Origin: Spongiibacter sp.
Lineage (GTDB): Bacteria; Pseudomonadota; Gammaproteobacteria; Pseudomonadales; Spongiibacteraceae
Length of the DNA: 64,000 nt
Assembly: GCF_041602295.1 (NCBI RefSeq)
Contig: NZ_JBFIGO010000003.1
Span: 6,115 to 70,114, forward strand
Reading direction: 5' to 3'
Made by a program: the position numbers and the translations under genes. Every line of letters begins with the position of its first letter. The first letter of the stretch is position 1. This document shows positions 52,065 through 64,000 of the stretch, piece after piece. The notes below the pieces were generated by a model that had not been told where the DNA came from, made no database searches, and was given only the letters and a program-made list of their open reading frames with translations.

Positions 52065-52234
52065 CTAGTGTTCCCGAACAGCAACTGCCGGGCCACCGCC
52101 CTGCAAAGCAAATGTGCGTTTACTTTCGGTTCACTGCAGATGCGGCTATGCGGCACCTCGCAATGAACCTATAATCGCCACTGCCTCGGCTCAGCCGAAT
52201 CGACTACAAGACTCTATATTGGAGGATGTTAAGA

Positions 52235-53641
52235 ATGTCAGAGAATACTCTGAAGTTAATCGCCGATAATGACGTGAAGTGGGCGGACCTGCGCTTCACC
52301 GACACTAAAGGTAAGGAACAGCACGTCACCATGCCGGTGGGCGAAATCGACGCAGGCTTCTTTGAAGAAGGCAAAATGTTCGACGGCTCATCCATCGCTG
52401 GCTGGAAAGGCATTAACGAGTCAGACATGATCCTCATGCCAGACGACGAGGCCTCTGTACTGGACCCGTTCACCGACGAGCCCACTGTTATCATCCGCTG
52501 CGGCATCGTTGAGCCTTCTACCATGCAGGGCTACAACCGCGACCCGCGCTCTATCGCTCAGCGCGCCGAAGACTACATGCGCTCTGCCGGCATCGCCGAC
52601 GGCGCCCTGTTTGGCCCCGAGCCCGAGTTCTTTGTATTTGACGACGTCAAATGGAAAGTCGCAATGGAAGGCGCCAGCTACGCCATCTCTTCTGACGAAG
52701 CGGCCTGGGTATCTGGCAACAACTTCGAAGAAGGCAACACTGGCCACCGTCCAGGCGTCAAAGGTGGTTACTTCCCCGTACCGCCAGTCGACAGCCTGCA
52801 CGACCTGCGTGGCGCCATGTGTAACGCCATGGACGACATGGGTCTGGAAATTGAAGTACACCACCACGAAGTCGGCACTGCCGGTCAGTGTGAAATCGGT
52901 GTTGGCCCGAACTCTGCCGTTAAAAAAGCCGACGAAGTACAGATTCTCAAGTACTGTGTCCACAACGTCGCTCACGCCTACGGCAAAACTGCGACTTTCA
53001 TGCCCAAGCCTATCGTTGGCGACAACGGCAGCGGCATGCACGTACACATGTCTCTGAGCAAAGACGGCCAGAACCTGTTCACCGGTGACGCTTACGGCGG
53101 CCTGTCTGAAACTGCCCTGTACTACATCGGCGGTATCATCAAGCACGCTCGCGCCATCAACGCCTTCACCAACGCTTCTACCAACTCGTACAAGCGCCTG
53201 GTTCCCGGCTTTGAAGCCCCGGTTATGCTGGCATACTCTGCTCGCAACCGTTCAGCCTCTATCCGCATCCCCTTCATCAGCAACCCGAAGGCACGTCGCG
53301 TAGAAGTTCGCTTCCCAGATCCCTCTGCGAACCCCTACCTGGCCTTTGCCGCCCTGCTGATGGCTGGCCTTGACGGCATCCAGAACAAGATCCACCCCGG
53401 CGATGCCGCCGACAAGGATCTGTACGACCTGCCCGCAGAAGAAGCAGCAAACATCCCAACTGTTGCCTCTAGCCTCGAGCAAGCTCTGCAGGCTCTGGAC
53501 GCAGACCGCGCCTTCTTGACCGCTGGCGGCGTATTCGACGACGACATGATCGACGCTTACATCGAGCTGAAATCACAAGAAATCGAGCGCCTGAACATGA
53601 CAACTCACCCCGTTGAGTTCGACATGTACTACAGCGTATAA
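52235..53641 (+). CDS. glnA: Glutamine synthetase type I
   Basis: [41 protein letters not shown] and adenylylation-site DKDLYDLP motifs. Confidence 0.98.
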
Positions 53642-53656
53642 GGCTCCGGCCGCGCG

Positions 53657-53684
53657 AAAAGCCCGCTTCGGCGGGCTTTTTTTT
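53657..53684. terminator. Terminator after glnA (possibly bidirectional)
   Basis: AAAAGCCCGC-TTCG-GCGGGCTTTTTTTT. Confidence 0.88.
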
Positions 53685-53864
53685 CATCGTAAATTGGCAT
53701 GTAAAAATGGGAGGCGAAGCGGTTAGCTTTGAGTTCGCCATAACGAACCCGCTCGAAAGGTCATCAAGCAAAGTCGCCGGCTGCCGGGATAACGACTACC
53801 TCATGGCGATAAACGCTGCGCTCAACGGTACAGCGCGACGAACCTTGTTATTCTCGACGCCGCA

Positions 53865-55220
53865 CTACTGAATACCAAAGGCCAACATAGCATCCGCCAC
53901 CTTTTTGAAACCCGCGATATTGGCGCCCTTGGCATAGTCCACATAACCGTCTGGGCGCTTTGCGTACTCGAGGCAGTTACTGTGAATATTCAACATAATA
54001 TCGCGCAACAGGCCCTGCAACTCCTCCTCCCTTAGCATCAAGCGCGTACTGTTCTGACTCATTTCCAAGCCGGAAACCGCCACACCGCCGGCATTGGCCG
54101 CCTTGGCCGGACCAAACAGCACCCGCGCATCGCGAAACACCTTCACACCATCGTTGGTAGTGGGCATATTCGCGCCCTCCACCACCGCCTTCACGCCGTT
54201 TTTAACCAGCAACTCTGCATCCGCTTTGCTCAGCTCATTCTGCGTGGCACAGGGCAAGGCAACATCACAGGGCACTTTCCATGGCCGCTCCCCCTCATGG
54301 AAGGTCGCGCCGGGAAACTCCGCCACATAGTCAGCCAGCTGACCGCTTCGATGCCCCTTGTGCGCCATCACCCAGTGAACTTTTTCCAACGTAAAGCCGT
54401 CCGGGTCATGCACGAAGCCACCGGAATCCGACATGGTTACCACCTTGGCCCCCAACTGCACGGCCTTTTCCGCGGCGTGAGTGGCCACATTTCCGGAGCC
54501 GGACACCGCAACCACCTTGCCTTCCACCACGTCGTTACTGTGCTTGAGCATGTCCTCCAGGAAATAAACAACGCCGTAACCCGTGGACTCCTTACGCACC
54601 AGGCTGCCCCCCCACTCCAGCCCTTTGCCCGTCAACACTCCTACATAGCGGTTGGTAATGCGCTTGTACTGGCCGAACATATAGCCTATTTCCCGCGCAC
54701 CCACGCCAATGTCACCTGCCGGCACATCGGTGTGCTCACCCACGTGGCGGTAGAGCTCGGTCATAAAGGATTGGCAAAAACGCATGACTTCGTTATCAGA
54801 CTTGCCCTTCGGATTGAAGTCGGAGCCCCCTTTTCCGCCCCCCATCGCCAAGCCCGTCAGACTATTCTTGAAGGTTTGCTCAAAGGCGAGAAACTTGAGA
54901 ATGCTCTGATTGACACTGCGATGGAAACGCAAGCCCCCTTTATACGGCCCAATCGCGTTGTTGTTTTGCACCCTATAGCCCCGCTGCACCCGAACGTTAC
55001 CGCAGTCATCCTCCCAGCAGACACGGAAGGAAACCACCCGATCCGGCTCCGCGATTCGGCGTAGAATCTGCGCTGCGTGATAAACCTCCTTGTCTTCGAT
55101 GAAGTCGAAAATATCGACAGCAACCTCATAAACGGCCTGGTGAAACTCGGTTTCGCCGGGATTTCGACGCAGCACCCCGTCCATAAACTGCTCAAGATTA
55201 ACGTGATCGGATACGGCCAT
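53865..55220 (-). CDS. gdhA: NADP-specific glutamate dehydrogenase
   Basis: GPYKGGLRFH, GGGKGGSDF, DVPAGDIGVG, GSGNVA and EGANMP motifs; start MAVSDH with RBS GAGGGG. Confidence 0.95.
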   Translation of the reverse strand: MAVSDHVNLEQFMDGVLRRNPGETEFHQAVYEVAVDIFDFIEDKEVYHAAQILRRIAEPDRVVSFRVCWEDDCGNVRVQRGYRVQNNNAIGPYKGGLRFHRSVNQSILKFLAFEQTFKNSLTGLAMGGGKGGSDFNPKGKSDNEVMRFCQSFMTELYRHVGEHTDVPAGDIGVGAREIGYMFGQYKRITNRYVGVLTGKGLEWGGSLVRKESTGYGVVYFLEDMLKHSNDVVEGKVVAVSGSGNVATHAAEKAVQLGAKVVTMSDSGGFVHDPDGFTLEKVHWVMAHKGHRSGQLADYVAEFPGATFHEGERPWKVPCDVALPCATQNELSKADAELLVKNGVKAVVEGANMPTTNDGVKVFRDARVLFGPAKAANAGGVAVSGLEMSQNSTRLMLREEELQGLLRDIMLNIHSNCLEYAKRPDGYVDYAKGANIAGFKKVADAMLAFGIQ

Positions 55221-55442
55221 GCTCGATTCCCCTCGCGTAAGGCAGTCCTCTATAAGTAATAGACGGCCTGACAGTGTTCGGCCACATTCCTCGCAAACAC
55301 CACACCCACCGCGGGACGGTAAGCTATACTCCTTTTCATCGGGGGTTACCATTGGCGTCGCATTTCGACGCACACCCCAGGACAAACCACCGGAACAAGG
55401 TAGCTAGGGGACACACCATGATGGGTCAGGTGGGGTGATCCA

Positions 55443-58043
55443 GTGACGGATCATTATGAAATTGCCGTTATCGGGGCCGGCCCCGCCGGTCTGAGTGCGG
55501 CCGGTCGAGCTGCAGATCACGACCGAGCAGATCAACTCGCCCAACCCCGCCATATTCTTCTCGAATCCTCGCCACTGCACGCCAACACTATCCAGCGCTA
55601 CCAAAAAGGCAAGCACGTTATGGACGAGCCTGGCTATCTGGATTTGCGCAGCCCGCTAGAATTTGCTGCCGGCAGGCGCGAACACATTCTGCAAACTTGG
55701 GAAGAGGATATCGCCTCCACCGGCATCAACTTGCGCTGCCACACTGAAGTCACCGGTATCAGCGGCCAGCGCGGCGACTTCAAGATCCGCTGCAGTGATG
55801 GCCGCGACATCACTGCAGACAATGTAGTGGTGTCGATCGGCACCCAGGGCAACCCCCGCCGCCTGGGTGTAGACGGTGACACCTCGGCCTTTGTGCAATA
55901 CCAGCTGGACGACCCCGACGAATATAGCGACGAAGATATTGTGGTGATCGGAGCGGGTGATGCGGCTATCGAGAATGCGCTGGCATTAGCGCGCCAGAAC
56001 CGTGTCGTGATCGTGAACCGTCGCGATGAATTCAGCCGCGCCAAGCAGGGCAACCTAGACGCGGTATTAACTGCCATCAACAACCCCAACGTGCCCTTCT
56101 CCTGTCGCTACGGCTCCAGCGTCAAGGCCCTGAGCATTGCTGAAAATGGCGAAGCAGGCAGTATCACCCTGAGCACCCCGCAGGGCGAAGAGACCCTGCC
56201 CTGCCATCGCATCATTGCGCGATTGGGCTCGATCCCGCCACGCAAGTTTGTCGAAGCCTGCGGCATTGAATTTCCCAGCGAAGACATAGAGTCGATACCC
56301 GAGCTGGACGCCCACTATCAGTCCAATGTGCCCGGCCTCTATATCATTGGTGCGCTCGCCGGTTACCCACTCATCAAACAGGGGATGAACCAGGGCTACG
56401 ATGTTATCGAATACATCAAGGGCAATGAGGTAAAACCGGCCGACCACGCCCTGCTGGCACTCAAGTTTGCCCTCCTGCCTTATGGCGCTGATGTCGATGA
56501 TGTGCTGGCCCTGTATCAGCAGCGCATTCCGATGTTTGCCCGCATGAACACACTCGCCTTCCGCGAGCTGATAATGGAAAGCAATATCCACTACGGTGTA
56601 CCCGATCAGCAACAGCTGGAAGAACTGCTGCAACAACGTGGTGAGCTGCGTGAACAGCGTATCGTCGACATTAAGAGCGCACGCCAGCAGGAAGACCAAC
56701 GCCGTGCACAGGCCGGGCGCCCGGCCAAAGTGCGTAAAGAGATTGCGGAACCCGAGATCACGCTGGTCAATGCCGCTGACGACTTTCTGTACCGCGATGG
56801 CGACTACAGCAACAGTTTTTTTACCATAGTAGAGGGCCAGGTGCTGCTACAGGCAGATGGCGGCGCCGATACCCGCCTGGGGCCGGGCCAATTCTTCGGT
56901 GAGATGAGCCTGCTCTCTGGCAGACCCCGCATTGGTAACGCCCAAATCAAAGGTGAAACGATCCTGATCGAAACACCGCGGCGCACCATGGTCAAACTGA
57001 TGGCGGCCAATACGGAAGTCAGCGAGGGGATTGAAGCGGTTTTTCTGCAACGGACCTTGCAGCAGTTTTTCGCGCCCAAAGTCAGTTACAGCGCCCTGCG
57101 CGAAATTGCACGGCAGGTGACCACCAGCCACTTTAATATTGGCGACACCATTTACAGCGAAGGCGAACAGGGTGACCGCCTATACCTCATTCGCAGTGGC
57201 ACGATCGCGCTAACCAAAAGCAGCGCACACGGCGACATCGCGGTAGGCCAGCCCCAGTCGGGAGAAATCTTTGGCCAAATGGCGCTAATGGGTGACGTAC
57301 AGCGCCGCGAAACCGCCAAGGCCTCCGTGCGCTGCGAAGTCATCGAAATTCAACGCCCCCAGTTTCTGGAGCTGCTACGCAAATCCCCCGAGTCTGTCAC
57401 CCGCCTGCAGCAAGATACTACCGCTCAGCTCAAATTGAACGCCCAGCTGGAAGCGGTGCCCGAGAGCGCCTCGGTCATTTCGTTTTTACTTGATCGCGGC
57501 GTCGGCGAAGCAACCAATGTGCTGATTATCAACGAACAGCTCTGTGTAGGCTGCGACAACTGTGAAGTTGCCTGTGCAGAAACCCATGGTGGCGTCTCCC
57601 GGCTGGACCGCAAAGCCGGCGCCCGTTTCGCGCACATCAACCTCCCTATTGCCTGCCGCCACTGCGAAAAACCGCATTGCATGAAAGAGTGCCCGCCCAA
57701 CGCCATACACCGGGATCCCAGTGGCGAAGTGTTTATTGATGACAGCTGCATTGGCTGCGGCAACTGCCAATCCAACTGTCCCTATGGCGTAATTCGCATG
57801 ACCTACCCGACCGAGAAAAAACCCGGCCTGCTGGATTGGTTGTTTTTCGGCCGCGGCCCCGGCCCGGGCGAAGACCGTAATGCCGAACCCAGCGCAACCG
57901 CCAAAGAAACCGGAAAGAAAGCTGTGAAATGCGATGCCTGCGTCAGCCGAGAAGCCGGGCCTGCCTGTGTGCAATCCTGCCCCACAGGCGCCGCAAAACG
58001 TATCAACCCCATACAATTTGTAGAGGTGATTAGCGTAAATTGA
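55443..58043 (+). CDS. Multidomain NAD(P)H/FAD oxidoreductase (TrxB/YpdA/FNR-like) + 2 cNMP-binding domains + 4x[4Fe-4S] DmsB/HydN-like domain
   Basis: GAGPAG and GAGDAA..NRR motifs, and IGALAG. cNMP cassettes FFGEMSLL.GRPR and IFGQMALM..VQRRETA. Sixteen Cys in CVGCDNCEVAC, CRHC..PHC...CP, CIGCGNCQSNCP and CDAC...PACVQSCP. Confidence 0.88.
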   Translation: MTDHYEIAVIGAGPAGLSAAGRAADHDRADQLAQPRHILLESSPLHANTIQRYQKGKHVMDEPGYLDLRSPLEFAAGRREHILQTWEEDIASTGINLRCHTEVTGISGQRGDFKIRCSDGRDITADNVVVSIGTQGNPRRLGVDGDTSAFVQYQLDDPDEYSDEDIVVIGAGDAAIENALALARQNRVVIVNRRDEFSRAKQGNLDAVLTAINNPNVPFSCRYGSSVKALSIAENGEAGSITLSTPQGEETLPCHRIIARLGSIPPRKFVEACGIEFPSEDIESIPELDAHYQSNVPGLYIIGALAGYPLIKQGMNQGYDVIEYIKGNEVKPADHALLALKFALLPYGADVDDVLALYQQRIPMFARMNTLAFRELIMESNIHYGVPDQQQLEELLQQRGELREQRIVDIKSARQQEDQRRAQAGRPAKVRKEIAEPEITLVNAADDFLYRDGDYSNSFFTIVEGQVLLQADGGADTRLGPGQFFGEMSLLSGRPRIGNAQIKGETILIETPRRTMVKLMAANTEVSEGIEAVFLQRTLQQFFAPKVSYSALREIARQVTTSHFNIGDTIYSEGEQGDRLYLIRSGTIALTKSSAHGDIAVGQPQSGEIFGQMALMGDVQRRETAKASVRCEVIEIQRPQFLELLRKSPESVTRLQQDTTAQLKLNAQLEAVPESASVISFLLDRGVGEATNVLIINEQLCVGCDNCEVACAETHGGVSRLDRKAGARFAHINLPIACRHCEKPHCMKECPPNAIHRDPSGEVFIDDSCIGCGNCQSNCPYGVIRMTYPTEKKPGLLDWLFFGRGPGPGEDRNAEPSATAKETGKKAVKCDACVSREAGPACVQSCPTGAAKRINPIQFVEVISVN

Positions 58044-58094
58044 TGCGCCACAAATACTGCAATACAGCGATTAACCGCACATGAGAGCGGCATA

Positions 58095-58985
58095 ATGTCG
58101 GCCCTGTACGCCAACCTGTTGAATTTCGCCGGGCGTCGCTACCTGAAGTGGGCGGCAATGCTGCTGGCGGTCAGCGTATTGCTCTATCTCAGCCAGGACA
58201 TAGCGCTGCCGCGCAATGGCGGCAGCTGGCAGGGCTACGCGCTGGGCAGCATCGGGCTGCTACTGATTGTCTGGCTCAGCTGCCTGGGTATACGCAAGCG
58301 CGATTACAACAATCAGCGCGGCAGCCTGCAGGCCTGGGTCTCCGCCCATATTTATTTGGGCCTGGCACTGCCACTAATCGCCACACTTCACTGCGCCTTC
58401 CAGTTCGGCAACAACGTCCACACCCTTGCCTACCTGCTGATGTGGACGGTAGTGATCAGCGGCGCCTACGGTCTGTACAGCTACCTGCGCTACCCCTTGA
58501 TGATGATCGGCAACCGGGCAAACAAGGCCTTTGATGAGCGCCTGAAAGAACTCGAGGACAGCGACCAGAACGGTCGGGAAGTTGCCGCGCAATGCAACGA
58601 AACAGTAAACGCGATCGTCAACAGTGCCATTGACCGCAGCAGTATTGGCGGCGGCTTTTTGGATCAGCTGCTGGCTCGAGACCGCTCCACCGTGCTGCTG
58701 CCCGGCGACAGTGGCGAGCTGATGTTACGCAACAATGTCGGCCAACAGGCCGCCATCGACTTTCTGGCTGCCAAAATTCCCGCCACCTCCAAATCCGGTG
58801 AGGCAGAGAAATTGCGCGACTTACTCAGCCTGCTGGGTCGCCGCGCCGAGCTACTGAGACGCCTGCGGCAGGAAATCAGCCTGCAACTGCGTTTGAAAGT
58901 GTGGCTCAGCGCTCACGTACCGCTCACTGCAGCGTTATTAGTCGCACTGGTGGCACACGTCATCAGCGTCTTTTTCTACTGGTGA
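58095..58985 (+). CDS. Five-TM membrane protein with two His-x13-His pairs (NOX/ferric-reductase-like di-heme b)
   Basis: H85/H99 (WVSAH...ATLH) and H274/H288 (WLSAH...VAH); positive-inside residues place both helices in the same orientation. Confidence 0.7.
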   Translation: MSALYANLLNFAGRRYLKWAAMLLAVSVLLYLSQDIALPRNGGSWQGYALGSIGLLLIVWLSCLGIRKRDYNNQRGSLQAWVSAHIYLGLALPLIATLHCAFQFGNNVHTLAYLLMWTVVISGAYGLYSYLRYPLMMIGNRANKAFDERLKELEDSDQNGREVAAQCNETVNAIVNSAIDRSSIGGGFLDQLLARDRSTVLLPGDSGELMLRNNVGQQAAIDFLAAKIPATSKSGEAEKLRDLLSLLGRRAELLRRLRQEISLQLRLKVWLSAHVPLTAALLVALVAHVISVFFYW

Positions 58986-58989
58986 TGTC

Positions 58990-60714
58990 ATGCTGATCCT
59001 TGTTCGTAAAGTCCGCATGCAGAACAACCGCATCGTTGATCAAAACGATGAAGAATTCAGCGCCGAGCATCTAACACTGGGCAGCCGCAGCGACCGTGAC
59101 CTGCAGCTGTTCGGTGACGGTGTCGGCACCGAGCACTGCGTACTCCAACCCCAGCAAAACGGCCAGTTGCTGGTGCAGTGTCAGCCACCACACAAGGTGC
59201 TCAGCGCCAGTGAAACGGGCGAGGGCTTGCGTCAGCTCAGTGCGACAGCAGACCAGTGGCTGCGTATCGGCCCGCACCAGTTTGCACGGGTGGAAGCGCC
59301 GCCAGGCTTTGATGCCGCTATTGAGCTGCGTGTTGATATCGACGCAACCGAGTCGCTAAAACAAAAGCTGCAGCAGGAGTTGACCCTGAAGCTGCCGCGA
59401 ATTCGCCGCCACAGTTATCTGTTGGCCCTGCTGACCCTGGCGGCCACGCTATTGCTGCCCTTATGGGGTTTTTATGACGATGGCGCGCAAGCCCTGCTCG
59501 ACAAGAGCGGCGCACCCAGTGACCGGTTTTGGCTCAGCGGCCCCCTTGCGGCACCGCACCATCTGCCGGGTTTGGCGAACGATTGCAATAGCTGCCACCT
59601 CAAGCCTTTTCAGCAGGTGCCGGACCAAGCCTGTGCGCAATGCCACAACACGACACCGGCGCATTTCGGCGATGCCCATCCCGCTGCGACCCGCCTGGAC
59701 CAAGATTGCGCCGCCTGCCACAAAGAACACAACGAGCCAGAAACACTGATAGTTGAAAACACCGCTCTGTGTGTCGACTGCCATCGCTCAGAACAAGCAC
59801 GCAGCCTTGATAGTCATTTCGCCGTTAGCGGCCACCCAGTAGCAAAAGCCCCCACACAGCTGCGCGCGGCCAGTGCGTTTACCGAAGCCGCGCATCCGGA
59901 GTTTCTACTTGCCCTGCTAAAGCGCGAACCAAACGGCTGGCAGATACAGCGCGAGCGCGCAGCGACTGCCCGTGAGTCGTCTAATCTAAAATTTCCCCAC
60001 GACGTACACACCAGCAGCAACAAGGTCTGGCGCAAGGAGAAAAACGGGCAACAACGTGCACTGCACTGTGGTGACTGTCACCAACTTGCCGACGACGGCG
60101 AACATTTTCAGCCCATCACCATGGAAACCCATTGCGCCGACTGCCACAGCCTCAGTTTTGACGACGCGGCTCCCTATCGATCGCTCCCCCATGCTCAAGC
60201 TGATGTGGTGGAAACCTACCTCGCCGAATTCTACGTTAAACAGCTTGCCGAGCAGCTGCGTTTGGCCGCAGCCCCACCACCGCGCTGGGTCCCGGCGCGC
60301 GATCTCGACACCCTGTGCCCCTCGCGCGATCCGCTGCAATGCGGCCTCGCCTGGGCCGACCGGGAGATCAGCCAGCTGTTTCAAACCAGCGGCTGCGTCG
60401 ATTGTCACGAAGTGGATCAGCACGACGGGCGCTGGCAAGTACGCGAGGTCAGGCTGACGCAGAACTGGATGCCCGAGGCGCGCTTTGATCACCGCCCGCA
60501 TCTCAGCGCCACCGTCGATGGCGAGGGCTGTCTGCGGTGTCACCAGGCCGACCGTTCCTCGCACAGCCGGGATGTATTGATGCCCAGTTTGGCAGACTGC
60601 ACCGCCTGCCACGGAGAGAAGCAATCCCAGGCCGTGCTGTTGCAGTGTATTGATTGCCATAGTTTTCATCGCACCGGTATGCCGGCAATGCTAAAGGCGG
60701 AGACACTGCCATGA
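58990..60714 (+). CDS. Membrane-anchored decaheme cytochrome c with N-terminal FHA-like domain
   Basis: Ten CxxCH motifs: CNSCH, CAQCH, CAACH, CVDCH, CGDCH, CADCH, CVDCH, CLRCH, CTACH, CIDCH. One TM after RIRRH; FPHDVH and FDHRPH distal-His motifs. Confidence 0.88.
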   Translation: MLILVRKVRMQNNRIVDQNDEEFSAEHLTLGSRSDRDLQLFGDGVGTEHCVLQPQQNGQLLVQCQPPHKVLSASETGEGLRQLSATADQWLRIGPHQFARVEAPPGFDAAIELRVDIDATESLKQKLQQELTLKLPRIRRHSYLLALLTLAATLLLPLWGFYDDGAQALLDKSGAPSDRFWLSGPLAAPHHLPGLANDCNSCHLKPFQQVPDQACAQCHNTTPAHFGDAHPAATRLDQDCAACHKEHNEPETLIVENTALCVDCHRSEQARSLDSHFAVSGHPVAKAPTQLRAASAFTEAAHPEFLLALLKREPNGWQIQRERAATARESSNLKFPHDVHTSSNKVWRKEKNGQQRALHCGDCHQLADDGEHFQPITMETHCADCHSLSFDDAAPYRSLPHAQADVVETYLAEFYVKQLAEQLRLAAAPPPRWVPARDLDTLCPSRDPLQCGLAWADREISQLFQTSGCVDCHEVDQHDGRWQVREVRLTQNWMPEARFDHRPHLSATVDGEGCLRCHQADRSSHSRDVLMPSLADCTACHGEKQSQAVLLQCIDCHSFHRTGMPAMLKAETLP

Positions 60715-62699
60715 GAGTATTGCCGGCCTTACTGCTGAGCCTGACACTGTCCGGCTGTTTACCCGGCGGCGATCGCGACAACCAGGACGGCGCACGCGGC
60801 TCCAATGCCGGCAGCCGCTGCGACGGCAGCTGTGCCAATGCCAGCACCTTTCTCAGCCCTGCTGATGTCGAACAAGTGATCCGACAGGCCGCCGCCGAGG
60901 CAAAGGCCTTGAACGTTGGCGCCACCATTGCCGTGGTCGACCGTGTCGGCAATGTGCTGGCGGCCTACCGGATGGACGAGGTGCTGACCGGCAGCGTCGG
61001 CGAGGTCACCATCGCTTCCAACCCTGGCGGCACGCCCATTGCGGCCGGCCTGGAAAGCCTGAAACTGCCCATCAGCGCTGGCGCCGATGCCTTAGCCGCC
61101 ATTGCCAAGGCCATTACCGGCGCCTACCTGTCCAGCGAAGGCAACGGCTTCAGCACCCGTGTGGCCAGCCAGATTGTGCAGGAGCATTTTAACCCCGGCG
61201 AGCGCAACCAGCCCGCGGGCCCGCTGTTTGGCGTGCAATTCAGTCAACTGCCCTGCTCTGACTTCTCGCTGGACGCCAGCAACCCCGCCACCCTGGTCGG
61301 CCCCAAACGCTCACCGCTGGGGCTATCAGCCGATCCGGGCGGCTTTCCACTGTATAAGAACGGCACACCGGTGGGCGGCATTGGTGTTATCGCCGATGAT
61401 TTCATCTACTCGCTGGACAAGAACATCAGCGACAGCGACCGGGATTTCGATGAGCTGATTGCGCTGGCCGGGACCTTTGGCTATGCCGTGCCCGCCGACC
61501 GACAGGCCGACCACATCACGGTCGACGCCAAGACCCTGCGTTACAGCGATGTCGACTTCGACGACCTGAGCGCCAATCTCACCTCGCCACCAGCACTGGT
61601 GCTGGGTGTCGATGGTTTGCTGGTCTCGGTGCCCGATTACTACGACAGCGCCAATGGCTATCTCGGCGGGCAGGCCTTTGGTGAAGCCGCCTCCGGGGTC
61701 CGCCCGGATACCACACACTTTCCCGGTCGCGATGCCTTTGTGTTCGTCGACCAAGCCAACATGGAACGCTTCCCGCCCAGTGCGGGCAGTGCATTGACGG
61801 CCGCCGAGGTACGCACGCTGATTGACCAGGCGTTGTCGGTCGCCAACCGGGCGCGCGCGCAAATCCGTCGCCCGCTGGGCTCCCCTGCCAGAGTGACGAT
61901 CAGCGTGGTGGACATCGACGGCAGCGTCCTGGGTATCGCCCGCAGCCGCGATGCGCCGGTCTTCGGTGCTGATGTCTCACTGCAAAAAGCCCGTACCGCA
62001 ACGCTGTTCTCCTCCAGTGACGCGGCCGACTTCATCAGCAACCTACCGGACACCCAGTACCTGACACCGACCCTGACCCAGTCAACCACCGTACAGCTGG
62101 TCGACTATGTTCAGAACGTGATTAATTTAACCGGTGACGCCAACGCCCTGCGCGATGGCATTGCCTTTGCCGACCGCTCCGGTGGCAACCTCTCCCGGCC
62201 GTTCTACCCCGACGGTATCGACAGCGCCCAGACGGGCCCACTCAGCAAAGCCCAGGGTGAATGGAGCCCCTTCTCCACCGGACTGCAGCTGGATATGAGC
62301 ATGAATGCCATCGTGCGCCACCTGCTGCATGAGTTTGATCCCACTAACGTCAGCGACGTCGGCAAGAACTGCGTCGGCGTGCCCTTTCCCAGCGATGCCA
62401 GCATCGCGAGTGCGAGGGCAGCCAATGGCATTCAGATTTTTCCTGGCAGTGTACCGGTGTACCGCGGCCTGCAGCTGGTGGGCGGCATTGGTGTATCCGG
62501 TGATGGCGTCGACCAAGACGATATGATTGCGTTTCTCGGCGTACATCAGGCCGGCCAGATACTCGGCACCCTGAACAATGCCCCGGCGAGTATCCGCGCC
62601 GATACCCTCAGCCCTGGCGGCGTCAGACTGCGCTATATCAGCTGCCCTCAATCACCCTTTAACGACAGTGATGAACAAGATGCCTGCGCGGGGAAGTAA
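60711..62699 (+). CDS. Lipoprotein with two GlcG/HbpS-like (heme-binding) domains
   Basis: LSGC lipobox; repeated IAVVDRVG/ISVVDIDG, AKA.T/QKARTA and GGFPL...VGGIGV/GSVPV...VGGIGVSG motifs; ATGA overlap with the cytochrome gene. Confidence 0.82.
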   Translation: MRVLPALLLSLTLSGCLPGGDRDNQDGARGSNAGSRCDGSCANASTFLSPADVEQVIRQAAAEAKALNVGATIAVVDRVGNVLAAYRMDEVLTGSVGEVTIASNPGGTPIAAGLESLKLPISAGADALAAIAKAITGAYLSSEGNGFSTRVASQIVQEHFNPGERNQPAGPLFGVQFSQLPCSDFSLDASNPATLVGPKRSPLGLSADPGGFPLYKNGTPVGGIGVIADDFIYSLDKNISDSDRDFDELIALAGTFGYAVPADRQADHITVDAKTLRYSDVDFDDLSANLTSPPALVLGVDGLLVSVPDYYDSANGYLGGQAFGEAASGVRPDTTHFPGRDAFVFVDQANMERFPPSAGSALTAAEVRTLIDQALSVANRARAQIRRPLGSPARVTISVVDIDGSVLGIARSRDAPVFGADVSLQKARTATLFSSSDAADFISNLPDTQYLTPTLTQSTTVQLVDYVQNVINLTGDANALRDGIAFADRSGGNLSRPFYPDGIDSAQTGPLSKAQGEWSPFSTGLQLDMSMNAIVRHLLHEFDPTNVSDVGKNCVGVPFPSDASIASARAANGIQIFPGSVPVYRGLQLVGGIGVSGDGVDQDDMIAFLGVHQAGQILGTLNNAPASIRADTLSPGGVRLRYISCPQSPFNDSDEQDACAGK

Positions 62700-64000
62700 C
62701 TGCCATAACGCGGTGCTGGCCGGCGTGCTGGCGGCCTTGCTGCCACACGCGACCTACGGGCAGGCGGCACGTATTTGCGAAAGGCCCGCTGCCGGCGACC
62801 CCAGTATCCCTGCCCGCAACGACGGCTGCGCGCGCAGAACGGCGCCAACCGGCAAGCGCATTGCCACCCCCAGCCTAAACGACTACAGCCCCGCCCAAGC
62901 CATGCCGGACCGCTGGCGAATTGTCGATGCACTGGGCTATGAAAGTCGCTGGTACGACCCCTACAACCGCAACACACTGAAAGGCGATGCCCCCCTTCAC
63001 GGCGACTGGTTCTTTGCCACCACTCTCATTTCAGACACCGTGTTTGAAGATCGCAAAGTCCCTACACCGGTTGGCTTGCAAAGTACCCGCAGCGCGGGCG
63101 ATCTGGATTTGCTCGGCGGCAGCAGTCAAACCCAGCTGGTTCAATCACTGGCCGTCGAATTGGTGTATTACAAGGGCGACACCGTATTTCGCCCACCGGA
63201 CTATGAATTTCGGCTGACACCAGTGTTCAACTACAACGACACCCAACTAGACGAAATCCTCGGCATCAATGTCGATCCCGCTAAGAAAAACAGCCGTTAC
63301 GACAACTTTGTCGGCTTCCAAGCGGCCTTTGTCGACGTCCACCTGCGCAATGTTTCGCCGCGCTACGATTTCGACAGCATCCGCGTCGGCATCCAGCCCT
63401 TTACCGCTGATTTTCGCGGTTTCCTGTTTCAGGACAGTCCCTTTGGGATCCGCCTGTTTGGCACCCGCGACAACAACATTTTTCAGTACAACCTGGGCTG
63501 GTTCCGGCGTCTGGAAAAAGACACCAACAGCGGCTTGAACGACGCCGGAGAAGCGCTGCGCGACGACGATATTTTTGTCGCCAACCTCTACTGGCAGGAT
63601 ATGCTGGCCAAGGGCCACATGAGTCAGTTCACGCTACTCTACAACCGCAACCGGGAAAGCGATTTCTTTTTTGACAATAACGGGTTTATTCAGCGACCCG
63701 CCTCCTTTGGCCGCGAGAGCCCCCGCAAGTACGATGTTGTCTATCTCGGCTTCAATACCGACGGGCATGTTGAGCGACTAAATATCACCAGCGCTTTTTA
63801 TGTTGCCCTCGGCCAGCAGGACGGCTCCCCCTTCACTGGCGATGACAGTGACATCCGCGCACTTTTCGCCGCCGCAGAGCTATCGTTTGATCGCGACTGG
63901 ATTCGCTGGCGCGCATCGCTGCTCTACGCTTCCGGTGACGATGATCCCTTTGACGATGTTGAAACCGGCTTCGACGCCATACTGGAATCCCCCCTGTTTG
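62671..64000 (+). CDS. Probable outer-membrane beta-barrel protein, 3'-truncated (absent from the ORF track)
   Basis: Frame 1 is open from ATG 62671 (or 62680) to the window end. Signal-like VLAGVLAALLPHATYG/Q, PDRWRIVD...WYDPYNRNTLKGD, then amphipathic strands (YNLGWFRRLEKDTNSG, YLGFNTDG, WIRWRASLLYASGD). Confidence 0.75.
   Translation, partial: MNKMPARGSNCHNAVLAGVLAALLPHATYGQAARICERPAAGDPSIPARNDGCARRTAPTGKRIATPSLNDYSPAQAMPDRWRIVDALGYESRWYDPYNRNTLKGDAPLHGDWFFATTLISDTVFEDRKVPTPVGLQSTRSAGDLDLLGGSSQTQLVQSLAVELVYYKGDTVFRPPDYEFRLTPVFNYNDTQLDEILGINVDPAKKNSRYDNFVGFQAAFVDVHLRNVSPRYDFDSIRVGIQPFTADFRGFLFQDSPFGIRLFGTRDNNIFQYNLGWFRRLEKDTNSGLNDAGEALRDDDIFVANLYWQDMLAKGHMSQFTLLYNRNRESDFFFDNNGFIQRPASFGRESPRKYDVVYLGFNTDGHVERLNITSAFYVALGQQDGSPFTGDDSDIRALFAAAELSFDRDWIRWRASLLYASGDDDPFDDVETGFDAILESPLF

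Follow-up and report, generated by a model that had tools for sequence, protein, structure and literature searches.

A conserved gene cluster of Spongiibacter and other Gammaproteobacteria with a predicted route for electron export from NAD(P)H

What is the function of a run of closely packed genes whose products appear to place a flavin, iron-sulfur clusters and haems one after another from the cytoplasm to the outer membrane? The question is raised by a stretch of 64,000 nucleotides from the genome of a Spongiibacter sp. (assembly GCF_041602295.1, contig NZ_JBFIGO010000003.1), here called the window, which lies on contig C3 of an assembly of 3.24 Mb with 58% G+C. Five co-directional open reading frames at window positions 55443-64000, here g1 to g5, had previously been interpreted from their letters alone. 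This sequence-only reading proposed an outward electron wire resembling NADPH oxidases (NOX) and the porin-cytochrome pair MtrAB, with its input switched by cyclic AMP (cAMP) or cyclic GMP (cGMP). Our analysis finds that the five are the first genes of a conserved nine-gene cluster (Table 1). This cluster may be a regulated route that leaves the quinone pool out and exports electrons from reduced nicotinamide adenine dinucleotide or its phosphate (NAD(P)H) to terminal cytochromes stationed at the outer membrane, an account to which we give about as much credence as doubt. Its core, consisting of g1, g2 and g3, is well supported by domain matches and conserved motifs.

The tight coupling of the five genes is borne out by the coordinates of the open reading frames. 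Gaps of 51 bp and 4 bp separate g1 from g2 and g2 from g3, g3 and g4 overlap in ATGA, and g5 overlaps g4 by 29 bp if it starts at the ATG at 62671, or by 20 bp if it starts at the ATG at 62680; the MNKM start at 62671 is found again in homologues. Reading on along the genome contig confirmed that the operon runs past the window, as had been suspected, with g6 following g5 after 7 bp, and with g7 and the genes of a PP2C phosphatase and a protein with two FHA domains (2xFHA) further downstream. A scan of the operon for promoters and terminators gave nothing beyond shuffled expectation.

The same genes occur together in other genomes, in an arrangement far beyond chance. Across 82 loci, g1-g7 follow one another in the same order on every contig long enough to show it, which is the case in about 60 species-level genomes. 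Beside g2, these loci contain g1 (80), g3 (78), g4 (64), g5 (61), g6 (58) and g7 (50), with nearly all absences falling at contig ends. Variant orders exist, such as g5-g6-g7-PP2C-FHA-g1-g2-g3, and some loci are without g4. Among 300 genomes sampled evenly from the class, g2 was present in 14 and g6 in 12, and every one of the 12 genomes with g6 also has g2 (hypergeometric p about 1e-19). A failure of the genes to co-occur elsewhere had been named as grounds for abandoning the sequence-only reading; on checking, they do co-occur. Furthermore, in the metagenome-assembled genome (MAG) GCA_039908105.1 (L087:10001-13333), a single open reading frame of 1110 aa joins g1, with its flavin, two cyclic-nucleotide-binding (CNB) and Fe-S domains, to g2. 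This single protein keeps both W-x3-H-x13-H motifs of g2, and a g3 homologue lies next to it, with no barrel or further cytochromes nearby; the three-gene core can therefore stand alone.

Relatives of g2 were recovered by two narrow peptide patterns in 318 of about 185,000 species genomes, and g2 is present in about 4-5% of sampled gammaproteobacterial genera. The closest 80 of the 318 genomes are mostly Gammaproteobacteria, including Spectribacter/Salinisphaera, Zhongshania, Spongiibacteraceae, Pseudoteredinibacter, Halieaceae, Marinobacter, Steroidobacteraceae, Wenzhouxiangellaceae and Woeseiaceae; the contigs of more distant relatives are mostly too short to inform on context. The cluster is a patchy accessory island, found in 6/25 genomes of the window's own genus and in 0/16 other families sampled from the order. 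One gammaproteobacterial genome (G211, contigs C12 and C14) has two copies of the g2...g6 cluster.

The predicted entry point for electrons is g1, in which three kinds of domain are fused. The N-terminal flavoprotein domain, expected to hold flavin adenine dinucleotide (FAD), matches Pyr_redox_3 (98.5 bits) and Pyr_redox_2 (93.1 bits) in Pfam, and its closest solved structures are YpdA/Bdr and thioredoxin reductase (TrxR). At the position of the redox CxxC of TrxR, g1 has SIGTQGNPRRLG, with zero Cys in 30/30 homologues aligned, and against the thioredoxin reductase family TIGR01292 it scores 60 bits with a cut-off of 343. The missing CxxC points to a flavoprotein of the dehydrogenase or ferredoxin-reductase type and rules out a disulfide reductase. 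A conserved NRRxEFSRAK comes after the strand that follows the second GxGxxG, and we take it to be the site for the 2'-phosphate of NADPH; g1 would probably prefer NADPH, since this motif can be likened to HRRDxFRA of Escherichia coli TrxR.

The middle of g1 matches cNMP_binding (PF00027) in two stretches with 114.5 bits, against a cut-off of 27.5, and its aa 444-654 align without interruption to the CNB-A/CNB-B tandem found in PKG and in the regulatory subunits of PKA. No variation occurs in the first phosphate-binding cassette, FFGExSLxSGRPR, where both the Glu and the Arg are canonical. In the second, GQMALMG..R[RQ]E/D[TS]A, the Arg is conserved and Gln replaces Glu in most homologues. With the phosphate-binding Arg kept in both, the two domains fit a prediction of nucleotide binding. 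The proposed cyclic-nucleotide gate thus holds as far as its domains and cassettes are concerned, while control by cAMP or cGMP keeps the rank of a proposal. Elsewhere in the genome, a 654-aa protein with a receiver domain and a class III nucleotidyl cyclase (contig C17:40177-40686, minus strand) is the sole match to PF00211; it is unlinked to the cluster and is a candidate source of a nucleotide signal.

The C-terminal part of g1 is a ferredoxin domain, with Fer4_11 and Fer4_7 over their cut-offs and PF13247 at 47.6 bits against 26.2. All 16 of its 16 cysteines are invariant across homologues, and its top PDB relatives are HycB3 (E 6e-18) and formate hydrogenlyase subunit 2, within a range of about 1e-17 to 1e-18. 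The four groups of cysteines, together with the Fer4_11 match, mark it as a four-cluster ferredoxin of the HycB/DmsB/NrfC type. A cytoplasmic NAD(P)H/FAD domain and 4x[4Fe-4S], both claimed for g1 beforehand, are therefore supported by the Pyr_redox_2/3 matches and the 16 invariant cysteines.

The step across the inner membrane is assigned to g2, a putative di-haem b protein judging by its motifs and predicted topology. Its AlphaFold2 model (predicted local distance difference test 90.7) has 5 transmembrane (TM) helices, with TM4 and TM5 separated by a cytoplasmic insert that is itself helical. The motif W81-x3-H85-x13-H99 lies on TM3, S122-G-x-x-G126 on TM4 and W270-x3-H274-x13-H288 on TM5, a geometry of two His pairs 13 apart on TM3 and TM5 like that of NOX and the ferric reductase domain (FRD). 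All five histidines of g2 (H85, H99, H109, H274 and H288) are kept without exception in 28 homologues, whose identity goes as low as 45%, and the same is true of W81, W270 and S122-G123-x-x-G126. Both His-x13-His pairs of the di-haem protein first suggested are thus upheld. The basic loops RRYLK, RKR and RRLR would place H85/H274 on the inner side of the membrane and H99/H288 on the outer side. The g2 family has 3049 members among 1.8 billion representatives searched, and both W-x3-H-x13-H motifs are kept in 105/127 representatives (50%-identity clusters of at least 250 aa, from the 150 best hits). Matches to known families were found below threshold: 26/28 g2 homologues match PF01292 (best E 2e-6, 28 bits against a 30-bit cut-off), 13/28 match DUF4405, and just 4/28 match the FRD family PF01794, with E of at least 0.2. 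In the PDB, Foldseek gave no significant counterpart of the g2 model (best E 0.38); global alignment may fail for a model that is all helices and has a large insert.

On the far side of this membrane, the periplasmic decahaem proposed earlier is confirmed in g3, which has 10 CxxCH motifs, as do 70/73 of its homologues. Its FHA-like head occupies aa 1 to about 110 in the cytoplasm and is followed by a TM helix at aa 143-161 and by periplasmic CxxCH motifs at aa 199-557. In 13-15 of 20 homologues the N-terminus gives FHA/Yop-YscD_cpl matches in Pfam, and its profile matches solved FHA domains with E down to 1.7e-6, which assigns it to the FHA fold. On reading the sequence, the canonical phosphothreonine-binding Arg (GR) and Ser (SxxH) are found to be replaced in g3 (LGSRSD...GTEH; consensus GS...A/GxxH). 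Against the DmsE/MtrA family TIGR03508, g3 scores 27.2 bits with a cut-off of 192.

Past the window, g6 is the most conserved protein of the set, with 57-75% identity compared with 29-48% for g3 and a mean column identity of 75%, which fits a constrained terminal protein. Its 10 CxxCH motifs are kept in 51/52 homologues, and these carry signal peptides of the type cleaved by signal peptidase I, with the lipobox absent. When relatives of g6 are clustered at 90% identity they form at least 8000 groups, every one of them labelled as hypothetical or as an LVIVD repeat protein, and a literature search on LVIVD and cytochrome returned just an unrelated LVIVD protein of Tenderiales. Two other indications were set aside: the low haem density of g6 was dropped as a mark of an enzyme, MtrC-type surface cytochromes being similarly dense, and its weak Pfam matches to MtrC/MtrF domains do not discriminate, given that g3 gives them too. 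The genes that follow g7 add a second regulatory layer that had been missed in the sequence-only reading, consisting of conserved PP2C, 2xFHA and Ser/Thr kinase genes. The 2xFHA protein carries the canonical GR/SxxH/NG motifs, and its gene lies directly past g7 and PP2C in 16/16 other genomes checked. In other loci the kinase gene is often upstream of g1.

The two remaining genes of the window encode a lipoprotein and a barrel. The lipobox of g4 is LSGC, with Cys16, and the protein matches PF03928 in three stretches (86 bits against a 25-bit cut-off). Its solved relatives are EfgA/GlcG, NahX, the PduO C-domain and a putative haem binder, and their ligands differ. The haem-binding lipoprotein first proposed is not upheld: g4 is a lipoprotein that, from its matches, appears to be of the GlcG/EfgA type, and haem binding is just a family label. 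Loci missing g4 include L061, L062, L064 and L075.

For g5, the AlphaFold2 model has 18 long strands, with parts at low confidence, and its top Foldseek match is AlgE (3rbh, E 8.7e-16, TM-score 0.71), followed by OprD/Occ porins. Its identity to AlgE/Alginate_exp porins is 12-14%, and it has no match in Pfam or NCBIfam, including Alginate_exp (PF13372) and MtrB/PioB (TIGR03509). Homologues of g5 have signal peptides, a conserved N-terminal extension and a beta-signal with a terminal aromatic residue (Y/F/W); the extension reads PDRWRIVD...WYDPYNRNTLKGD and the C-terminal beta-signal ...LFNAVLTY. By estimated C-alpha diameter, 18 strands would span about 33 Å compared with about 47 Å for 26 strands, which we take to be the number in MtrB. 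An outer-membrane barrel with a signal peptide, as first read, is therefore modelled, but with an AlgE-like fold of 18 strands and not as an MtrB-like one. The likeness to MtrAB fails on both partners, on the 27 bits of g3 against the 192 of DmsE/MtrA and on the lack of an MtrB/PioB match for g5. Near the mature N-terminus of g5 (window 62671-63000), most homologues have a Cys pair around a basic motif of the RRRRPG type, after which comes an invariant PDRWRI...DPYN.N.LKGD segment that is disordered in the model. This N-terminal segment could be a plug or a docking arm.

How might these parts work together? In the mechanism that we propose, NAD(P)H would reduce the FAD of g1, and electrons would pass along the four [4Fe-4S] clusters of its ferredoxin domain, which would dock on the cytoplasmic face of g2. 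Two b-haems of g2 would then span the inner membrane, with H85/H274 binding the inner haem and H99/H288 the outer one, and the membrane-anchored decahaem g3 would receive the electrons into the periplasm. From there, the 4-5-haem g7 would relay them to the decahaem-propeller g6, which is encoded directly after the barrel g5; together, g5, g6 and g7 would form a terminal reductase station at the outer membrane. Over a wire to minerals of the MtrAB type, we favour a defined soluble acceptor that would reach g6 either at the barrel or through it, because g6 is conserved and lacks a lipobox and because the barrel is AlgE/OprD-like. A barrel of 18-20 strands might still take a thin haem-bearing segment. 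By motif counts, the cofactors along the route come to an FAD, four [4Fe-4S] clusters, two membrane haems and about 25 c-type haems. CcmF, CcmC and the class III cyclase, which count in favour of this export route, are encoded elsewhere in the genome.

Two switches on this flux are suggested. The first would be a ligand bound to the PKA-R-like tandem cNMP (cyclic nucleoside monophosphate) domains, which lie between the flavin and Fe-S parts of g1. The second would be the conserved module of Ser/Thr kinase, PP2C and 2xFHA proteins, perhaps acting through the FHA-like head of g3. Because the path would consume NAD(P)H and run down the membrane potential, tight control is plausible. Three considerations lead us to infer outward flow: an input enzyme of the NAD(P)H type, thermodynamics, and a membrane potential that would favour the exit of electrons. 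The compartment-by-compartment chain of the sequence-only reading, from NAD(P)H/FAD through 4x[4Fe-4S] and di-haem b to a decahaem, fits these observations, including the conserved gene order and the fusion of g1 with g2 in one MAG. Its outward wire with an input switched by cAMP or cGMP agrees with them in the cofactor chain, while for the gating and the direction the wording should stay that of a prediction.

Several points weigh against this route for NAD(P)H electrons. The cluster is known from genes alone and every member of it is uncharacterised. All Pfam matches of g2 are under threshold, and g2 has no significant fold or sequence/profile match to any solved di-haem protein in the PDB. 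The 18-strand barrel, as modelled, is narrower than MtrB, which puts the passage of electrons or substrate across the outer membrane in question. In g6 no catalytic motif was found, nor was any solved relative, even by profile, among PDB sequences. Bacterial cNMP-type domains can bind other ligands, and no gene like the host's own receiver-class III cyclase, which served as the query, was found near the cluster in the 82 loci. Finally, the same membrane protein was modelled as quinone-active, with electrons flowing inward, in PMC5566968.

That published work also provides the closest predicted relatives of the cluster. He et al. 2017 (PMC5566968) described the conserved inner-membrane protein of the PCC3 and PCC4 clusters as a chain of about 300 aa that crosses the membrane five times, with a WX3HX13H motif on each of TM3 and TM5 and SGXXG on TM4, and likened it to the FRD domain of ferric reductases/NOX and to cytochrome b. 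In their PCC4 subgroup II, an upstream Fe-S gene (pfam13247) is accompanied by other redox proteins, a porin and 4-, 5- and 10-haem cytochromes, and they report one more case of the Fe-S and membrane genes annotated as one gene. A cluster of PCC4-like composition was later named ptdABCDEFG in a preprint (bioRxiv 10.1101/2023.11.21.568154, 2023-24), which called its function completely unknown and counts among its products a cNMP-binding protein that has 4Fe-4S clusters, a membrane protein termed "ferric reductase-like" and a decahaem. Judging by the published compositions, PCC4 and ptdABCDEFG are apparently the same. The claim that no system of this architecture has been characterised therefore stands, but PCC4 and ptdABCDEFG had already been predicted.

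Placed by these descriptions, the present cluster is an uncharacterised relative of PCC4/ptd that shares the inner module and differs in its outer half. The size, five TM helices, WX3HX13H pair and SGXXG of g2 agree with the full PCC3/PCC4 definition. In both groups the membrane protein is directly preceded by an Fe-S gene or domain and is accompanied by cNMP-binding and FAD/NAD(P) redox functions, a decahaem and a porin, and both occur in marine Proteobacteria. Unlike in PCC4/ptd, the FAD, cNMP and Fe-S domains are here fused in one 866-aa protein, and the conserved set includes PP2C and 2xFHA genes. The outer half here combines a lipoprotein of the GlcG type and an 18-strand barrel similar to AlgE with the 1251-aa decahaem-LVIVD-propeller g6 and the c554-like g7, whereas PCC4/ptd have a pentahaem of beta-sandwich type with an NrfA-COG assignment and a tetrahaem; no pentahaem NrfA-like protein is present in our cluster. 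PCC3 is similar in its 5-TM WX3HX13H membrane protein, porin and multihaem cytochromes, but its cytochromes are giant, with medians of 21 and 34 haems, its porins reach 42 strands, and no flavo-Fe-S partner was described for it.

Other known systems share parts of this layout. MtrCAB, MtoAB and PioAB likewise unite two decahaems and an outer-membrane barrel within a single operon. Our cluster differs from them in lacking family membership, in having 18 strands instead of 26, and in a supply of electrons predicted to come from NAD(P)H through Fe-S clusters and haem b, not from quinol through CymA. The same genome has a separate set of genes on contig C122 (L090:1878-5607), with a DmsE/MtrA-family decahaem of 310 aa (284 bits, cut-off 192), a 741-aa barrel that belongs to the MtrB/PioB family (356 bits, with 240 required for TIGR03509) and a divergent NapC/CymA-type tetrahaem cytochrome. 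Judging from these family matches, the host may already perform quinol-linked extracellular electron transfer with this C122 set. The Tmc and Hmc complexes of sulfate reducers join a periplasmic multihaem c, a membrane cytochrome b and a cytoplasmic Fe-S protein. Their layout is like that of our cluster, but their cytochrome b is of the NarI/HdrE type, their Fe-S protein of the HdrD type and their electrons move inward. Flavin-based extracellular electron transfer in Listeria has a dedicated NADH entry for electron export, but its route runs through quinone and flavinylated lipoproteins.

In NOX/FRD proteins, and in the bacterial two-component MsrQ-Fre system, a stack of two b-haems conducts electrons from NAD(P)H through the membrane; the haems are bound by His pairs, spaced 13 residues apart, of TM3 and TM5. 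NOX5 is regulated by a fused sensor domain. The comparison made in the sequence-only reading thus holds for the logic and for the geometry of the haem motifs. It does not extend to the remainder: g2 has 5 TM helices and no PF01794 match, and in place of an FNR-type FAD/NADPH domain that passes electrons directly to haem, g1 is a separate flavoprotein of the TrxR/YpdA type that would be wired through four interposed Fe-S clusters. The product would be reduced cytochrome c and not superoxide, as far as is visible. A broader suggestion is that in bacteria, namely in common aerobic heterotrophs of sea and soil, the cluster does the work of NADPH oxidases and ferric reductases, spending NAD(P)H past the respiratory chain under second-messenger and Ser/Thr-kinase control and, at the cell surface, reducing O2 to superoxide, or Fe(III), Mn or organic oxidants. 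We consider this rather improbable. NAD(P)H-stimulated extracellular superoxide production and reductive metal uptake have long been observed in marine bacteria, and if the suggestion were true the cluster would provide a molecular basis for one or the other.

Three further explanations can be weighed against export to a defined acceptor. A true porin-cytochrome wire of the MtrAB type, with a haem chain through g5 by which NAD(P)H would reduce Fe(III)/Mn(IV) minerals or electrodes, is unlikely but has the most to be said for it. The haem part of g6 has about 80 aa per haem, within what we take to be the MtrC-type range, and one carrier MAG is named Biocath_Gamma_022. The 7-bp gap between the barrel gene and a multihaem gene is a hallmark of PCC clusters (PMC5566968), and LVIVD repeats are typical of cell-surface proteins according to Pfam and the Tenderiales preprint. 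Against such a wire stand the narrower AlgE/OprD-like model of g5, the lack of MtrB/PioB or DmsE membership in a genome whose contig C122 has a genuine MtoA/MtoB/CymA set that clears the two cut-offs, and a g6 that has no lipobox and is conserved to a degree unusual for an outer-surface cytochrome. In addition, the carriers are mostly aerobes, judging by the named genera.

The reverse direction, in which a donor outside the cell or in the periplasm, such as Fe(II) or Mn(II), would feed the quinone pool through a quinone-active g2 and leave g1 as a regulator or secondary outlet, strikes us as distinctly improbable. It is the model given by He et al. 2017 (PMC5566968) for PCC3/PCC4, clusters with the same 5-TM WX3HX13H/SGXXG protein. 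Most g2 homologues weakly match PF01292, a family of quinone-reactive b cytochromes. Tmc and Hmc also pass electrons inward through the same layout of cytochrome c, cytochrome b and Fe-S protein. However, a complete NAD(P)H flavoprotein-ferredoxin always adjoins g2 in the form of g1 and is fused to it in one MAG, which argues for a cytoplasmic redox partner and not a quinone. Reduction of NAD(P)+ by Fe(II)/Mn(II) would be strongly uphill, inward movement would oppose the membrane potential, and the carriers are not known iron oxidisers. Least probable of all, in our view, is a sensing or signalling device whose haem chain reports the redox state of the periplasm or the exterior to g1 and to the kinase, phosphatase and FHA proteins. 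The regulatory content of the cluster is unusually heavy, with two cNMP domains, the FHA-like head of g3 and the PP2C, 2xFHA and Ser/Thr kinase proteins, and the GlcG/HbpS family includes sensors such as EfgA and HbpS. A sensor with about 27 haems, four Fe-S clusters and a flavin would nevertheless be costly to build, no transcription factor or other output domain was found in the cluster by Pfam/NCBIfam scan, and the large, highly conserved g6 suggests catalysis or specific binding.

The coordinates of the genes and of the domains of g1 are collected in Table 1.

Table 1. Genes of the cluster and domains of g1. Plain positions refer to the window; positions marked L002 lie past it, and their window equivalent is L002 + 54886.
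Feature	Position	Strand	Description	Basis
g1	55443..58043	+	866 aa, cytoplasmic fusion of TrxR/YpdA-like FAD/NAD(P)H domain, tandem cNMP-binding pair and four-cluster ferredoxin domain	Pfam, NCBIfam, PDB relatives, conservation
g1 flavoprotein domain	55443..56450	+	aa 1 to about 336; two GxGxxG motifs, conserved NRRxEFSRAK, without TrxR redox CxxC	
g1 tandem cyclic-nucleotide-binding domains	56772..57404	+	aa 444-654	
g1 ferredoxin domain	57522..58010	+	aa 694-856; 16 Cys in four CxxCxxCxxxC-type groups, HycB/DmsB/NrfC-like 4x[4Fe-4S]	
g2	58095..58985	+	296 aa, inner-membrane, 5 TM helices, putative di-haem b	Invariant residues, AlphaFold2
g3	58990..60714	+	574 aa; FHA-like head, one TM helix, periplasmic decahaem c domain	
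g4	60711..62699	+	662-aa lipoprotein with three GlcG/HbpS-like (DUF336) stretches	
g5	62671..64000, runs to window-equivalent 64443	+	590-aa outer-membrane beta-barrel with signal peptide	
g6	L002 9565-13320		1251 aa, 10 CxxCH, C-terminal LVIVD beta-propeller	
g7	L002 13310-14638		c554-like, 4 CxxCH and one CxxxxCH; GTG start preceded by GGAGG	
PP2C phosphatase	L002 14639-15421			
Two-FHA protein	L002 15520-16416		Canonical FHA domains	
Ser/Thr kinase	L002 16413-17909	-	Convergent	

Directly upstream of the cluster, at window 52226-55385, lie glnA (plus strand) and the divergent gdhA (minus strand). Given its presence in 6/25 genomes of the genus, the cluster looks like an accessory insertion beside these core nitrogen-assimilation genes. 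Downstream, the PP2C, 2xFHA and convergent kinase genes together span L002:14639-17909, equivalent to window 69525-72795. Past the kinase gene, L002:17910-19908 (minus strand) encodes an alpha/beta-hydrolase-like protein and a small autotransporter beta-domain protein, with no evident link to the cluster.

The carriers of the cluster are mostly aerobic marine and soil bacteria. If the export route is true, hundreds of mostly aerobic species would own a switchable exit for NAD(P)H electrons that bypasses the quinone pool, a process without a characterised example in Gram-negative bacteria. This would bear on the extracellular redox chemistry of oxic seawater and soils, including iron and manganese cycling and reactive oxygen, on the ways in which cells discard reducing power or put it to use, and on bioelectrochemical engineering. 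Cultured carriers exist in Zhongshania, Spongiibacter nanhainus, Marinobacter salexigens, Steroidobacter, Pseudoteredinibacter isoporae, Parahaliea maris and Spectribacter. Together with a core as compact as three genes, reduced in one MAG to a single g1+g2 polypeptide and its g3 neighbour, they make the function of this cluster a directly testable question.

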